Below are positions 6,238 through 64,000 of a DNA stretch of 64,000 nucleotides, one piece after another. The position numbers were made by a program, and so were the translations under genes. The notes beneath the pieces were generated by a model. That model searched no databases. It saw only the letters and a list, made by a program, of their open reading frames with translations, and was not told where the DNA came from. The first letter of the stretch is position 1. Every line of letters starts with the position of its first letter. Source of the DNA: Octopus sinensis (Eukaryota). The DNA is taken from the NCBI RefSeq assembly GCF_006345805.1, contig NC_043004.1, forward strand, positions 55,862,001-55,926,000, read 5' to 3'.

Positions 6238-6848
6238 CTACTTCACCATTGCTTTTACATAACTATGTAATCATATTTTTTGACAAGGGTCCAATTACAT
6301 TTGACCCAGATGTCAAAACTAGAAAGGGTTAATATTACTTTATGTAAAGAGACTAAAATATATAATCTTGATGAAAAGAGAAAAGAGCAAGGTGGAGGAG
6401 GAGGAAGAGTACACAGCAGGACGGAGTGACAGATGAAGAGAACCACATCAAAAACAAGATCTATAACAAATAACAATGAAGTGTTATTACATTACTGAAG
6501 GAAAAGTGAGATTTTCTTATATATATATATATATAATAGCCAAAGTTTTGTCTTGAGGTCATTGCGTATTTCATTACTTTTTGTGCAGGAGTGGCTGTGT
6601 GGTAAGTAGCTTGTTTACCAACCACATGGTTCTGGGTCCAGTCCCACTGCGTGGCACCTTGGGCAAGTGTCTTCTGCTATAGCCCCGGGTCGACCAATGC
6701 CTTGTGAGTGGATTTGGTAGACGGAAACTGAAAGAAGCCTGTCGTATATATGTATGTATATATATATATATATATATATAAGAATGAATGTTTTTATATA
6801 TAATGAACGTGAAATACAGGAAGGGACGAACACGGAACACAGACAAAT

Positions 6849-6994
6849 CATTCGAAGCCTTCAATCTTCAGTCAGACACCGAATCATCATAGCAAATTTC
6901 GGCTGTTCAATTCTGATATTTACTCCAACTCGGCCAGCCCCAAGAAAAAAAACTAAGCTGTAAGCATTAGATTTCTTGGTAGAAGACAGGAATG
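6849..6994 (-). ncRNA. Non-canonically ordered hammerhead-like ribozyme (copy C1)
   Basis: Minus strand GGCTG..CCGAGTT..GTAAAT-A-TCAGA..CAGCC-GAAATTTGC..GATTCGG..TCTGA-CTGAAGA; stems covary with the 62.8 and 63.2 kb copies. Confidence 0.6.
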
Positions 6995-7564
6995 TGAACG
7001 CACAAGACGGATGTGAATACAAGAGACGAAAACGAAATTGAAAACAGTAATGAATACAAAAATATAATAACGGTGGTTGTCATACGACTTTAGACCAAAT
7101 GAGACAAAACAACAACAACATAGCAGCTGGCGTAGAAATAATTACCGTTTCGGTAGCGGGGACACATGTTGGTCGAGATACGAAGGCCAACAGAATGGTT
7201 GAAGAAGCAGCAGGTCGCAGGAGAGAGAGAAAGAGAGACAGAGAGAGAGGGAATCAAAGAGGGTGGAAGGCAGGGGACAGAATCAGTGACCAAGAGAAAA
7301 GGAGAAAGAAGGGATTAAGGAGGATGGGAGGAAGAGGGGAGGAGGATGGGAGGAAGAGAGGGGAAGAATCGGAGGGCGCCAAAAAGTTTGGTGAAGAAGC
7401 AATGGCGGGTAGTAAAAGACAGTGTGTATAGAAGTCGTGCAGGGTTTAAAATTGGACAAACAAACGGGGGGGTGCATGTAACGCCGCAATAATATAAGAA
7501 TGAATGTTTTTATATATAATGAACGTGAAATACAGGAAGGGACGAACACGGAACACAGACAAAT

Positions 7565-7662
7565 CATTCGAAGCCTTCAATCTTCAGTCAGACACCGAAT
7601 CATCATAGCAAATTTCGGCTGTTCAATTCTGATATTTGCTCCAACTCGGCCAGCCCCAAGAA
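7565..7662 (-). ncRNA. Non-canonically ordered hammerhead-like ribozyme (copy C2, 5'-truncated)
   Basis: Repeat of C1; stem III AGCAAAT/ATTTGCT perfect. Confidence 0.55.
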
Positions 7663-12042: not shown

Positions 12043-12998
12043 TAGCAACTCCTGACCATAAGTGAGGAAAGATATGAAAATTGAAATGAAGATAGCAAGT
12101 TTTTTTAAAAATTTTATTTATTTATTTATTTTTTTTTACCAAACTCTCCTCTTCTATGGATTGAATAGAGGCATTTGAGCTACTTGTGAACCATGCTTGA
12201 AAGACAGTGTCTTTTAAATTGCCTGAAGGTTTTTTTCTAAGTGAAGTAGTCCTTATACCTAGTCAATACTGAAAACTATGTATGGTTCCAATTTTATAGG
12301 CATTCAAACTGGGGGGATGTGGGAAGATGGATTTGAGTATCACACTAAATTTAGAGCCATATCTAATCTCTAATATCTTAAGACAGACATTCAACTTTGA
12401 AACTTTATACAAGCAGCTTACTTCAGGAATACATTACAAATAGATAAAGTCCTTGCCAACTATTTTCCAGGAAGTTTTAAAAATAAGAAAAAAAATTGAA
12501 ATGCAAGATTTTGGAGGATTTTGGCACTCTGTAAAACAGTTTTAGGTAATTAAGCCTATTACATCCTGAAATAGATATAGATGTCTATTATACAACCATA
12601 ATTTAGACATTGAAAATAAATATTTATAACTGGAATTATTAATCACTGAATAGTGGCCCAAGGCTGAAATGAAGTTTGTACTCTTTGGACAGTGAACAAA
12701 CCATGGGTCCTGTTTCCTTCCCTCTGTCTCCACCTCTACTATAGCCTAGTCAAGGGGGATCTAAGTCTGCAAGCTTCATGGTGACCCGTTAGTGCTAATG
12801 CTACAAGAAGAGCCAAAAAAAAAAAAAAAGCACCCGGTACACACAGTAAAATGGCTGGTATTATAAAGGGCATTGAGACGTAGAAACTATGTTAAAGCAG
12901 ATATTGAAGCATGATGTGGTTATTATTCCAGTCAGATCCTATCAAATTGTACAATCCATGCCAGCATGGAATGAGGGTGAAGAAATACAGACACATAT

Positions 12999-13032
<34 letters not shown>

Positions 13033-14361
13033 GTGTAAGCTATGGACACATAAGAGGTGCAGCAATGTCAAAGGAAGGCTAACTAGGAAGATGGTTTTTG
13101 TATGTGGCAGATGCTCAGGAACAATAAACACTGAAAATGCTCTGAGACCAACTTCTGTCACTTTCCAGGGAGAAAAACTAGAAATAGTTGATAGCTTCCG
13201 TTACCTAGGTGACCAAGTCAGCAGCGGGGGCGGGTGTGCTGAAAGTATAACTGCTAGAGTAAGAATAGCTTGAGCAAAGTTCAGAGAGCTCTTACTTCTG
13301 CTGGTGACAAAAGGCCTCTCACTCAGAGTAAAAGGCAGACTGTATGATGCGTGTGTACGAACAGCCATGCTACATGGTAGTGAAATATGGGCCGTGACTG
13401 CTGAGGATATGCGTAAGCTTGCAAGAAATGAAGCCAGTATGTTCCAATGGATGTGTAATGTCAGTACTCATACTCGACAGAGTGTAAGTACCTTGAGAGA
13501 AAAGCTGGACCTAAGAAGCATCAGTTGTGGTGTGCAAGAGAGACGTGTGTGCTGGTATGGGCATGTGGCAAGGATGGATGAAGATAGTTGTGTGAAAAAG
13601 TGCCACACCCTAGCGGTTGAGGGAACCTGTGGAAGAGGCAGACCCAGGAAAACCTGGGACGAGGTGGTGAAGCACGACCCTCGAACTCTAGGTCTCACTG
13701 AGGAAATGACTAGAGACCGAGACCTCTGGAAGTATGCTGTGTGCGAGAAGACCCGGCAGGACAAGTGAGACTATAACCTACGGCCTTCTACATGGGATGT
13801 AGCCAGCCCATGTATGCATACCTTCCCTTGTTGGGACACAAAACTCTACTTGTGAAGACCTGTTGAGGCAAGTGAGGATCAGAATCGAAATCGATCAATG
13901 GAAATTGCAGCTGAGTTACCAGTGCCGGTGGCGTGTAAGAGAACTATCCATTTGTGACCATTGCTAGCGCCGCCCCGACTGGCCTCGTGCTGGTGGCACG
14001 TAAAAAGCACCATCAGTTCGTGTCCATTGCCAGCCTCACCTGGCCCCCATGCCGGTGGCACGTAAAGCACCATCCGCTCGTGTCCGTTGCCAGCCTCGCC
14101 TGGCCCCCATGCCGGTGGCACGTAAAAGCACCATCCGTTTGTGGCCGTTTGCCAGCTCCGTCTGGCACCTGTGCGGGTGGCACGTAAAAAGCACCCACTA
14201 CACTCACGGAGTGGTTGGCGTTAGGAAGGGCATGCAGCCGTAGAAACACTGCCAGATCAGACTGGGCCTGATGCAGCCTTCTGGCTTCCCAGACCCCAGT
14301 TGAACCGTCCAACCCATGCTAGCATGGAAAGCGGACGCTAAATGATGATGATGATGATGAT
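13033..14361 (+). mobile_element. 5'-truncated RTE-clade LINE (RT C-terminus, in-frame TGA at 13271, 3' UTR with tandem units, (GAT)n tail)
   Basis: ORFs 12911-13273 and 13304-13768 (FRYLG, RIAW→stop, WYGHV.RM, GRGRPRKTW) nearly identical to the 25577-27195 copy. Confidence 0.92.
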
Positions 14362-24751: not shown

Positions 24752-27195
24752 CATCATCATCATCATTTAGCGTCCGTTCTCCATGCTAGCATGGGTTGGA
24801 CGGTTCAACTGGGATCTGTGAAGCTGGAAGGCTTCATCAGGCCCAGTCAGATCTGGCAGTGTTTCTACGGCCGGATGCCCTTCCTAACGCCAACCACTCC
24901 GTGAGTGTAGTGGGTGCTTTTTACGTGCCACGCGCACAGGTGCCAGACAGAGCTGGCAAACGGCCACGAATGGATGGTGCTTTTACGTGTCACCGGCACG
25001 GGGCCAGGCAAGGCTGGCAACGGACACGAACGGATGGTGCTTTTACGTGCCACCAACACGGGGCCAGACAGAGCTGGCAAACGGACACGAACGGATGGTG
25101 CTTTTACGTGCCACCAACACGGGGGCCAGACAGAGCTGGCAAACGGCCACGAAACGGATGGTGCTTTTACGTGTCACCGGCACAGGGGCCAGGCGAGGCT
25201 GGCAACGGACACGAACGGATGGTGCTTTTACATGCCACCGACACGGGGGCCAGACAGGGTTGGCAAACGGCCATGAATGGATGGTGTTTTTACGTGTCAC
25301 CGGCACGGGGGCCAGACAGAGCTGGCAAACGGCGACGAACGGATGGTGCTTTTACGTGTCACCGGCACGGGGGCCAGGCGAGGCTGGCAACAAACACGAA
25401 CGGATGGTGCTTTTACGTGCCACCGACATGGGGGCCAGACAGGGCTGGCAAACGGCCACGAACGGATGGTGCTTTTACGTGTCACCTGCACGGGGGCCCT
25501 GATGTTGATCGACCTCAATTTGGTTCTGCTTTCTGATATATGTATTGATTTGGTTTGATTTTGATTTTGACTGTTCTCACTGGTCTTGCCGGGTTTTCTC
25601 ACGCACAGCATACTTCCAAAGGTCTCGGTCTCTGGTCATTTCCTTGGTGAGACCTAAAGTTCGAAGGTCGTGCTTCACCACCTCGACCCAGGTTTTCCTG
25701 GGTCTACCTCTTCCACAGGTCCCCTCAACTGCCAGGGTGTGGCACTTTCGCACACAACTATCTTCAGCCATTCTCATCACATGACCATACCAGCGCAAAC
25801 GTCTCTCTTGCACACAACAACTGATGCTACTTAGGTTCAACTTTTCTCTCAAGGTACTTACACTCTGTCGATTATGAACACTGACATTACACATCCATCG
25901 GAGCATACTAGCTTCATTTCTTGTGAGCTTACGCAAATCCTCAGCAGTCACAGCCCAAGTTTCACTACCATGTAGCATGGCTGTACGTACACATGCATCA
26001 TACAGTCTGCCTTTTACTTTGAGCGAGAGGCCTTTTGTCACCATCAGGGGTAAGAGCTCTCTAAACTTTGCCCAGGCTATTCTTACTCTAGCAGTTATAC
26101 TTTCAGCACACCCGCCCCCGCTACTGACTTGGTCACCTAGGTAACAGAAACTATCAACTACTTCTAGTTTTTCTCCCTGGAAAGTGACGGAAGTTGGTCT
26201 CAGAGCATTTTCAGTGTTTATTGTTCCTGAACATCTGCCACATACAAAAACCATCTTCCTAGTTAGCCTTCCTTTGACATTGCTGCACCTCTTATGTGTC
26301 CATAGCTTACACTTGGTGCATCTTATAGAGTTTCTACCTACCCCTTTTCTACAGATCGAGCAGGGCCATCTACCTGAAGGCGTTTGTGATTGGTCTACCT
26401 TCCTACTTATTAGGACTTTGGTTTTGGCTAGGTTGATTCTAAGGCCCTTCGATTCTAAACCATGCTTCCATACCTGAAACTTCTCCTCTAGTTCTGATAC
26501 AGACTCAACAATTAGAGCAAGGTCATTAGCATAGAGGAGCTCCCAGGGGCATCCTGTCTTGAATTCCTCTGTTATTGCCTGGAGGACTATGATAAATAGG
26601 AGGGGACTGAGGACTGAACCTTGGTGGACCCCAACCTCTACCCTGAATTCTTCACTGTACTTGATGCCAACCCTCACCTTACTAGCAGCGTCTCTGTACA
26701 TGGCTTGTACAGCTTTCACTAACCATTCATCTATCCCTAGTTTCCTCATTGACCACCAGATGAGGGATCGGGGGACCCTGTCGAAGGCTTTCTCCATATC
26801 AACAAAAGCCAGGTATAGGGGCTTGTCTTTGGCTAGGTATTTCTCCTGCAGCTGTCTTACCATGAAAATAGCATCAGTAGTACTTTTCCCTGGCACGAAC
26901 CCAAACTGCATCTGATCTAGGCTAACTCTCTCTCTAATTAGTTGGGCTATAACCCTCTCTGTAACCTTCATTACCTGATCCAGCAGCTTGATACCCCTGT
27001 AGTTATTTGTATCTAGGGCGTCACCTTTACCTTTGTAGCAGCTGACTATTATGCTGCTACACCAGTCATTGGGAATGACTCCTTCGTGTATCACCTTGTT
27101 AACTATATGGGTGACTAGGCTATAGCCGACACTACCAGATATTTTGAGCATCTCTGCAGTAATTCCTGATAGGCCTGGGGCTTTCCCTGTTTTTT
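24752..27195 (-). mobile_element. 5'-truncated RTE-clade LINE: RT domain plus PHD-like finger, 3' UTR with tandem array, (GAT)n tail
   Basis: Motifs KAPG, NYRGIKLL, QFGF, FVDMEKAFDRV, GVHQGSVLSPLLF, YANDL, FCYLG; stop at 25577; both ends abut (TA)n. Confidence 0.95.
24915..25497. repeat. Tandem array of ~10 x ~58-60-bp units in the RTE 3' UTR
   Basis: Repeated ggatggtgcttttacgtg(t/c)caccggcacgggggccag…gctggcaa(a)cgg. Confidence 0.9.
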
Positions 27196-52928: not shown

Positions 52929-53969
52929 CGTTGGCAACTAAGTTCCTGCTGTTTTTTTACATTTTGGAATTTATTGCTTTTTAAATTTTGTAATCTATTT
53001 TGTTTTTTTTTCTAGTTAATTTTAGTTAATTTTTGTATATTTTCAGATCATTAAAATGGAATGTCAAGTTGAGAAAAAACGAGCATTTTCGACTCCTCCT
53101 TTTTACATTTAATCAAGGTTCTAAGGCCGCAAAAGCTGCTCGCGACATTTGACATTTTTGCTGTGTATGGAGTGGTTGCCATAGCTGAAAGAACCGTTCG
53201 TGATTGGTATGCCAGGTTCAGAAATGGAAATTTTGACCTCAAAGACGCACCTCGTTCTCGCTGTCCAGTTGAGTTCGATGGAAAGCGATTAAACCAACTT
53301 TTGCAGGAAAATTCTCGTCAAACGACAAGGGAACTGGCTGAGAAAATAGAATGCTCCCACACTGCTATAGAGAAGCATCTTCACTCGATGGAAAAGGTTC
53401 AGAAGTATGGAGCATGAGTTCTGCATGCTTTAAGGGACAACAGCAAAAATCAACGAGCCACAATCTCTGCTGATTTGCTTGCTGGACACTCTCAACTCTT
53501 GGACATAAGCAACGATTTCTTTACCGAATCGTTACTGGCGACGAAAAATGGTGCCTGTACATCAATATGAAGCTGTGTAAGGAATGGCTTAGCCCCGGTA
53601 AACAAGCGACACCGCGCGTGAAACAAGATCTTCATCGGCGTAAAGCGATGTTGTGCGTATGGTGGGACTGGGAAGGGATTATCCATTACAAATTGCTTGA
53701 ACGGAACCAAACGGTCAACGCGGAACATGCTATGCGCGGAGTTTCGTTCAATGCTGATGCAGAATTGAGAGCTTGGTTGGATCAATTTTTCGAGTCGAAA
53801 TCGGGCGATTTCTACCAACGAGGTATTGAAAATTTTGTTGAATGTTAGAGAGAAGTTGTAAACAAGAAGGGTGAAGGCATTATTGATTTTTTAGTTGTTA
53901 TTTTTTATTAAATCTTTAAAAAAATTTTAATTTAAAACAACGGCGGGAACTTAGTTGCCAACCAATATA
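52922..53969 (+). mobile_element. Mariner (Mos1-like) transposon relic with internal deletion
   Basis: TIRs ttggcaactaagttcc / ggaacttagttgccaa; ERTVRDWYARFRNGNFDLKD, RIVTGDEKW, KAMLCVWWD; region of the second and third catalytic Asp deleted. Confidence 0.92.
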
Positions 53970-62720: not shown

Positions 62721-62798
62721 CACATCTCTTAATTAAGAAGGCATTAAAATAGATTGACTCTCTCCAGGCACAACAATATCCGTCCTTGTTTTCGTAAA

Positions 62799-62942
62799 CA
62801 TTCGCTGCTTTCTTCCAAGGAATCTAATGCTCTTAGCTTAGGTCTTTCCTTGGGCCTGGCCAGATTGGAACAATCTCGAGTATAACCAGCCGAAATTGCA
62901 AAGATAATCTGGAACTCGACTGAGGATAAAAAATTCCGAATG
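62799..62942 (+). ncRNA. Non-canonically ordered hammerhead-like ribozyme (copy B)
   Basis: CCAGATT..CAAT-C-TCGAGT..CAGCC-GAAATTG..AATCTGG.ACTCGA-CTGAGGA. Confidence 0.6.
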
Positions 62943-63006
62943 ACTCATCCTTATTATCTTTGTATCGTCTGTCTGGATGTTTTGCGTTCTTGTACCATTT
63001 TTGTAT

Positions 63007-63039
<33 letters not shown>

Positions 63040-63135
63040 TATATTATATATATAAAGTAAAAAATATATACAAACTGGGACAAGAACGTGAAACGTGAAA
63101 CACCTAGAAGACGACACAAGAACCACAGGACGGGA

Positions 63136-63279
63136 CATTCGAAGCCCTCAGTCATCAGTCAAGAACCAGATCATCTTCGCAATTTCGGCTGATTAATCTT
63201 GAGATTGCTCCGACCTGGGCAGCCCCCAAGGGAAATCTAAGCCAAGCGCATTAGATCCCTTGGAAGAAAGCTTCGAATG
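63136..63279 (-). ncRNA. Non-canonically ordered hammerhead-like ribozyme (copy A)
   Basis: GGCTG.CCAGGTC..GCAAT-C-TCAAGA..CAGCC-GAAATTGC..GATCTGG.TCTTGA-CTGATGA; closing stem CATTCGAAGC/GCTTCGAATG. Confidence 0.65.
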
Positions 63280-63529
63280 TATACAACACAAGGACGGAAA
63301 ACGGACGATGTACACGAATAAAAATACAAAAATACGTGAAAACAATAAGGAAAGCACGAATATATAGAAAGGCAGAAAGGTTGGAGCGAGAGAAGGAATT
63401 TTTCTCAAGGTATGGTGAAGGCTGTAATGCATTTTTCTCATAGGTGTGCTCGATCAAAACCGATCCAAGTGTGAATACCAGCATGAGTAACAGCATCAAT
63501 ATCGACTATTATTAATACCCCTACCCCAA

Positions 63530-64000
63530 CCACCATCACCATCACCGCCGCCACCACAGATCATCACCACCATCACCACCACCATACCACCATCACCACC
63601 ACCACCGCCACCACCGCCATCACCGCCACCATCACCACCACCACCACCACCACCACCACAATCACCACCACCATCACCATCACCACCATCACGACCACCA
63701 CCAACACCATCACCATCCCATCACCATCACCATCACCACCATCACCACCACCACTACCACTACCACCATCACCACCACCATCACCACCACCACCGCCATC
63801 ACCACCATCACCACCAACACCAACACCATCACCATCACCACCACCATCACCATCACCACCATCACCACCATCACCACCACCACCGCCATCACCACCATCA
63901 CCACCAACACCAACACCATCACCATCACCACCACCATCACCATCACCACCACCATCACCATCACCATCACCACCATCACCACCAGCACCAGCACCACCAC
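63530..64000. repeat. (CAC/CAT)n cryptic trinucleotide repeat
   Basis: Direct reading. Confidence 0.95.

Follow-up and report, generated by a model that had tools for sequence, protein, structure and literature searches.

A split-core, hammerhead-like RNA motif in probable Naiad-derived tandem repeats of Octopus sinensis

Copies of the motif in the window

The window analyzed here, a stretch of 64,000 nt from Octopus sinensis (contig NC_043004.1, positions 55,862,001 to 55,926,000 of the forward strand), contains four copies (A, B, C and D) of a hammerhead-like motif, lying in elements of families A, B and C. Their features, in window coordinates, are as follows.

63038 to 63362, minus strand: family A element, the 5'-truncated 3' end of a non-coding tandem unit of ~750 nt, ending in (TA)n; 92.6% to the family unit
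63266 to 63279, minus: copy A, 5' strand of the Q stem (closing stem), pairing with 63136-63149
63225 to 63264, minus: copy A, hairpin R (CCAAG...CTTGG), immediately 5' of IIa
63220 to 63224, minus: copy A, stem II strand IIa, moved to a place upstream of the core, with G10.1 at 63224 and pairing with 63187-63191
63211 to 63218, minus: copy A, 5' strand of stem P, which links the ends of stems I and II; pairs with 63166-63173
63209 to 63210, minus: copy A, GA of the predicted kink-turn, non-bulge strand (consensus as in the available text of PMC5061560)
63197 to 63208, minus: copy A, block S, comprising a stem III strand, the AUC site and strand Ia; C17 at 63203, predicted cut 63203/63202
63192 to 63196, minus: copy A, 5-nt linker from Ia to block G
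63179 to 63191, minus: copy A, block G, comprising IIb, GAAA (G12 at 63186) and IIIb
63174 to 63178, minus: copy A, 3-nt bulge and GA of the predicted kink-turn
63152 to 63164, minus: copy A, stem I strand Ib and CUGAUGA (63158-63152), with no IIa after it
63136 to 63149, minus: copy A, 3' strand of the Q stem, 2 nt past A9
62779 to 63006, plus: family B element, with the motif at 62799-62942, predicted cut after 62875, G12 at 62892 and CUGAGGA at 62920-62926
6768 to 7662, minus: family C tandem insertion with a period of 716 nt, consisting of truncated copy D and, after it, a complete unit that carries copy C
7565 to 7662, minus: copy D, G12 at 7616, predicted cut 7633/7632
6849 to 6994, minus: copy C, G12 at 6900, predicted cut 6917/6916

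The core boxes and positions given for all copies in the initial annotation were correct: the N of CUGANGA is U, G, A and A in copies A to D, respectively, GAAA is present, and the sites are AUC, AUC, AUA and AUA, with the predicted cuts listed above in register with NUH. Its stem sequences mostly stood, except that stem II of copy B reads GGCCTG (family sequence, GGGCTG) and that AGCAAAT, given for stem III, occurs in copy D, copy C reading AGTAAAT with a G-U wobble. Copy B also carries a substitution in stem III (GGAAC versus GGAGC in the family) and fails the motif descriptor in the window test; its substitutions in stems II and III suggest that it may be impaired. Copy D is truncated at its 5' end and has no 5' strand of either Q or R.

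The covariance model proposed in the initial annotation was built from 10 genome copies, including copy A of the window, and recovered all four copies in the window at E values of 1e-17 to 1e-21, together with one further weak match (E 0.028) within a LINE reading frame. The model had no match in 200 kb of loci chosen by position, and the motif descriptor had none in 1.32 Mb of shuffled sequence.

Elements A and B lie tail to tail across one (TA)n tract (62779-63362) and, as they are 81% alike, a read-through transcript could form a long hairpin. Element A directly adjoins a long (ACC/ATC)n trinucleotide tract (63529-64000). Elsewhere in the window, the reverse transcriptase frame of an RTE-like LINE, which includes a PHD-like finger (Pfam RVT_1, 1.5e-28), lies at 25577-27100, minus, and 12908-13770, plus, its second, partial copy being inverted (13033-13770). 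There is also a Mariner-type transposase remnant (53073-53848, plus; Pfam Transposase_1).

Layout, pairing and conservation

From 5' to 3', the motif comprises Q5', hairpin R, IIa, P5', GA, IIIa, NUH, Ia, a link of 1 to 6 nt, IIb, GAAA, IIIb, a 3-nt bulge plus GA, P3', Ib, CUGANGA and Q3', with six helices (I, II, III, P, Q and R). It contains the hallmarks of hammerheads, namely CUGANGA, GAAA and an NUH with the U16.1-A15.1 pair, and stems I to III flank these boxes in register. The covariation claimed for the stems was borne out: across 10 subfamilies, 18 of 24 pairs showed double changes and none of 500 shuffles was as good, a figure that is not a p-value because the aligned rows are related subfamilies. 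E, I, M, N and E2 were omitted from this alignment because MAFFT misaligned them. For the 10 representatives aligned, 92.9% of cells in stems I, II, III and P were paired, all slid registers scoring far lower; stems I, II and III were paired at 98%, 92% and 98%, respectively, with double changes at 13 of their 16 pairs.

Families that differ in every stem nevertheless keep G12-A13-A14, U16.1-A15.1, CUGANGA and a non-G at position 17. A core-spacing pattern containing only GAAAC, GAT and CUGANGA occurred at 571 places in the genome, compared with three for the reversed pattern, and in 50 of these 571 loci positions outside the pattern were enriched (U16.1 in 34 and G10.1, 38 nt upstream, in 26). 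In hammerhead chemistry, G12 acts as the base and the 2'-OH of G8 as the acid. Since every catalytic hammerhead base is kept, the motif is likely, from its sequence, to be a self-cutting RNA.

It could also be that the fold is real and that catalysis was lost or never there, the motif binding a protein or marking the template for reverse transcriptase. Consistent with this, minimal Penelope hammerheads are weak in vitro (PMC4209133), eight of nine frog retrozyme dimers were uncleaved in one preprint, and several Naiad 3' ends, in the consensi viewed, are devoid of the motif. We nonetheless regard this explanation as improbable, because the constancy of G12-A13-A14, U16.1-A15.1, CUGANGA and non-G17 is the pattern expected of catalysis.

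The motif is not a hammerhead of type I, II or III, as had been proposed: the conventional fold is absent in A, B and D, and C shows one 3-bp chance pairing. The suggested comparison with Rfam returned no hammerhead model at E values up to 1 and no other relevant family. Minimum-energy folding, from which pseudoknots are absent, scored the proposed strand no better than the opposite strand.

Relation to published hammerheads

The strand order NUH, GAAA, CUGANGA, which the initial annotation took to be unknown, is already published as type SGC with cleavage shown (Eckert et al. 2023, PMC10085705). That work describes 583 type SGC sequences, from metatranscriptomes only, plus two CSG sequences. 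Type SGC cuts where predicted, at rates of 0.007-0.19 per minute, and none of its four stems, the equivalent of P among them, is dispensable; single motifs cleaved during transcription and were regarded as acting in cis, with no dimer test reported in the available text. The six permutations considered there follow from the assumption that CUGANGA is separated from its stems by 1-2 nt at most. In some SGC sequences, stem III runs straight into the bridging helix, yet the two lie far apart in the crystal structure (PMC10085705).

Our motif and type SGC have in common the S-G-C order, a short linker between Ia and IIb, a helix that connects stems I and II at their far ends, a double pseudoknot and the core bases. 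Unlike in published SGC, block C is here split at A9/G10.1, Q and R are added, and both strands of P continue into III to give a single hairpin, often through a predicted kink-turn; also, SGC comes from metatranscriptomes only, whereas the split form occurs in animal repeats in thousands of copies. By its sequence, the split form is thus a variant of the SGC-order hammerhead, in which the order is known and the split block, the four-way junction and the predicted kink-turn appear to be new. Our searches of open-access literature gave no description of these three features, of the closed P-III hairpin or of an occurrence in animal retroelements. The motif is therefore less novel in strand order than first thought and richer in architecture and biology. 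We infer that SGC, CSG, GCS and the split form may be four opening points of one circle.

Other hammerheads resemble the motif in single respects. In the PK hammerhead (Zhan et al. 2024, PMC11300833), stem II is also a pseudoknot and not a hairpin; there, a stem-loop linked to helix I gives the pseudoknot, as in pistol, and the available text notes no S-G-C order, Q/R junction or kink-turn. The minimal type I hammerheads of Penelope elements and non-LTR retrozymes (PMC4209133; bioRxiv 10.64898/2026.07.22.740005) share with our repeats a ribozyme in a terminal repeat, non-coding tandem units and a proposed dimer-dependent cleavage. These type I forms dimerize by swapping a weak, palindromic stem III (PMC4209133; bioRxiv 10.64898/2026.07.22.740005), whereas our motif has a stable stem III and would make its proposed loop-to-foot contact through stems I and II. 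Of the features that characterize non-LTR retrozymes, the non-coding tandem hammerhead units are present in our repeats and the type I hammerhead is absent.

A divided core and its junction

As the initial annotation had claimed, the link from A9 to stem II is broken: none of 14 parsed representatives (a set that leaves E2 outside) has a contiguous stem II strand. In 12 of them the best partner of IIb within about 200 nt is a segment 35-44 nt upstream of G12, the two exceptions being a decayed K copy and M, in which it is shifted 3 nt by a deletion. The upstream IIa strand covaries at all five of its positions. A one-nucleotide insertion at A9/G10.1 occurs in a viroid hammerhead.

Q begins 0-2 nt past A9, and R begins 0-2 nt past Q5' and ends 0-1 nt before G10.1, a spacing that indicates a four-way junction at the A9/G10.1 break. 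The CCAAG hairpin and the closing stem of the initial annotation are thus both present, as R and Q, and it was the junction that they make that had been overlooked. With IIa and A9 fixed, no more than 10 of 1500 shuffles equalled the combined score of Q and R for 10 of the 14 representatives. For the other four, H, J, F2 and N, among which is the Naiad copy used, the score was not above shuffles.

Another possibility is an ordinary type SGC hammerhead, in which the GGCU located 5 nt past A9 provides stem II, with the upstream strand acting as a decoy or a switch. A 4-bp downstream partner does exist at +40/+41 in A, A2 and C. However, it is absent from B, F, H, I, J and N, the downstream GGCU segment is paired in Q, and it is the upstream IIa that covaries, which together make this reading very improbable.

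A predicted kink-turn between stem III and P

The initial annotation described an extra stem, here P, and overlooked the element joining it to stem III. In 12 of 15 representatives, including A, B and C, the loop that joins III to P agrees with the kink-turn consensus of PMC5061560 (a canonical helix, a 3-nt bulge and tandem G-A/A-G pairs), and we predict it to be a kink-turn. The 5' GA lies at its exact place in 26 of the 50 pattern loci; for those representatives that were retrieved with a pattern requiring the 3' GA, independent evidence for the kink-turn comes from the 5' GA only. The kink-turn is absent in E and I and mutated in the F copy used. In family E, its place is taken by an AGUA/GAA motif that we take to be loop-E-like. 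This family (L144-L158, L175; 1928 candidates) is split-core, with a clean four-way junction and a tandem unit of 845 nt.

Families in the genome and occurrence elsewhere

A first look at the 2.7-Gb genome yielded at least 1825 candidates for family A, at least 1018 for B and at least 1338 for C, counts that are lower bounds and not copy numbers. The split-core motif was also found in further families, designated E, F, N, H, I, J, K and M. The copies share a constant 3' end, located about 60-200 nt beyond the motif depending on the family; their 5' truncation is variable and their flanks are (TA)n. Families A, B and C form tandem head-to-tail units of 574-777 nt, with occasional inverted copies, and these units have no reading frame. 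Tandem copies occurred in 2 of 31 A loci, 5 of 21 B loci and 11 of 22 C loci, and the majority of genomic copies are single. Inspected by eye, the few 5' truncation points of tandem copies showed no evident peak at the predicted cut site.

Beyond this genome, a pattern scan of metagenomes gave 118 loci, six of which pass the descriptor with Q, R and the kink-turn, their stem sequences being quite different; the six contigs fall into about three related pairs. A model trained on this genome alone detected five of these six loci at about E 1e-4 to 1e-7; it gave E 0.77 for the sixth and E 0.0016 for a Naiad copy. Among the matches listed, none of 120 pattern loci from phage contigs passed the descriptor, and in prokaryote genomes 2 of 120 did, again among the matches listed. 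Both of these are weak and AT-rich, and the covariance model matches neither; the phage and prokaryote figures serve as the background level.

Probable link to Naiad elements

Partial tandem and inverted 5'-truncated copies, as well as (TA)n targets, are the anatomy of Penelope-like elements, as described with the Naiad clade (Craig et al. 2021, PMC8557442). The A, B and C repeats display all these traits and the 3' UTR layout of Naiads, from which they differ in that their units contain no reading frame. The available text of PMC8557442 reports no canonical hammerhead in Naiads, flagging instead 10 'HHR_core' and eight 'HHR_half_core' cases that fit no descriptor.

We read by eye the 3' UTRs of part of the 54 Naiads in PMC8557442. 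The split layout, with Q and R, is visible in the consensi Naiad_Amil/Aacu/Anas, the Clytia Naiad, Naiad-2_Movir, Naiad_Plae, Naiad_EuTe and Naiad_Obim/Ovul, and also in Naiad_Bfor, with a weak stem I. These elements span a comb jelly, a hydrozoan, corals, a box jelly, an acanthocephalan, a clam shrimp and octopus. Nematode and spider Naiads show, by eye, the intact-block order C-S-G, and neither this order nor the split layout appeared in the viewed 3' ends of Naiad_Ppla, two Clytia entries and others. Type CSG is thus seen in Naiad 3' UTRs of Pristionchus, Nippostrongylus and a spider, being otherwise represented by two metagenome sequences. The 3' ends of Naiad-1_Chem and Naiad-2_Chem have in common a conserved, apparently structured motif that lacks hammerhead boxes.

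In the octopus genome, a short motif of the published octopus Naiad consensus was found at 719 places, versus none for the control, and family N matches the published Naiad 3' end. At one locus (L599), the 5' part of a Naiad is fused directly to the 3' motif, which we interpret as an internal deletion of the kind proposed for the origin of A, B and C. An ORF with an N-terminal GIY-YIG and a C-terminal RT was absent from the flanks of A, B and C loci, and no autonomous partner of these families was found in the loci examined. The motif architecture and repeat anatomy held in common nevertheless argue that the A, B and C units are probably Naiad derivatives, and the split-core motif is likely the "missing" Naiad ribozyme.

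Penelope-like elements with a C-terminal endonuclease were considered as a source of the motif and rejected, since such neighbours are separate insertions into (TA)n tracts. A family B copy lies beside an ORF of this type (L071), and family E copies lie downstream of one (L085, L095). Intact 781-aa elements of this type end without the motif, and the covariance model, which also misses family E, matched none of 17 C-terminal-endonuclease loci. At L161, L162 and L178 there are numerous intact and almost identical Penelope-like ORFs of 781 aa (RT plus C-terminal GIY-YIG), with an overlapping frame upstream; their 3' regions show no CUGANGA box, suggesting a young family that apparently has no recognizable hammerhead. 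Another Penelope-like family (L163, L166) has, by eye, a conventional minimal type I hammerhead ~500 nt past the ORF.

Possible docking between tandem copies

In the mechanism that we propose, the apical loop of the P-III hairpin would present NUH, Ia, IIb and GAA, and the junction at the foot of the hairpin would present IIa and Ib-CUGANGA. The links II-P and P-I are 0-2 nt long, the I-II link being longer, and with such short links P would stack on II and point away from the core, so that loop and foot should come from different copies. At the A9/G10.1 break, each of the two arms would pair on its own with the closed loop, Q closing only afterwards and R stacking on Q, and the break may let the two arms clasp this loop without threading. 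Hammerheads are able to cleave circular I/II substrates. Cleavage would then need two copies, and multimeric transcripts would be cut to unit length. Other Penelope-like hammerheads have also been proposed to act as dimers (PMC4209133).

A rough geometric calculation, using assumed helix parameters and not a 3D model, allowed the kink-turn forms to close in cis in 14% of sampled geometries for A, 8% for C and 0.5% for B. For nearly straight P-III arms (family E, loop-E-like; Naiad_EuTe, 1-nt bulge; Naiad_Plae, 3-nt bulge), cis closure was 0.000. Because these straight-arm relatives never close in cis in this rough geometry, tandem docking is the only route that fits every form.

The split-core hammerhead might instead work as a monomer, with the kink-turn bending P back along III and II so that the loop docks on its own foot, possibly with the help of an L7Ae-family protein in folding. 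The kink-turn consensus in 12 of 15 representatives, the non-zero cis closure of A, B and C, and the cleavage of published SGC and CSG motifs on their own, in some of which stem III and the bridging helix are 0-2 nt apart (PMC10085705), all agree with such a monomer. Conversely, family E and the published relatives whose bulges are 1 and 3 nt long could not fold in this way without the melting of helices, the 0-1 nt links between II and P would favour coaxial stacking, and a bend near 160 degrees is needed compared with the 130 of a kink-turn; we thus consider the monomer unlikely, with a real chance of being right.

Docking between copies has its own difficulties. The usual role of a kink-turn is to fold a loop back onto the molecule that carries it, and single published SGC motifs cleave (PMC10085705). 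Two of the CSG and split Naiads have, by eye, a P about as long as II, core and III together, which would suit a fold-back in cis. Moreover, most genomic copies are single, and the autonomous partner of A, B and C was not found in the loci examined. Weighing these points, we judge the chances to be about even that the motif is a split-core hammerhead of likely Naiad-derived tandem repeats that cleaves after NUH through loop-to-foot docking of two copies; obligate trans cleavage is plausible under this model. With slightly lower probability, it may constitute a seventh hammerhead arrangement, with CUGANGA severed from stem II and reconnected through the four-way junction, acting as an obligate, copy-counting 'kissing' ribozyme and representing, together with CSG, a long-missed Naiad ribozyme across animal phyla.

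Implications

The split form contradicts the published assumption that hammerhead blocks are uninterruptible (PMC10085705), and it places hammerheads that are not circularly permuted in animal genomes, in thousands of copies. If docking between copies is true, the motif would be a compact two-part ribozyme useful for RNA engineering, and it would provide a second, independent way to tie the cleavage of retroelement RNA to tandem copies. The puzzle of the Naiads, apparently without hammerheads and yet with 'half cores' (PMC8557442), becomes testable.
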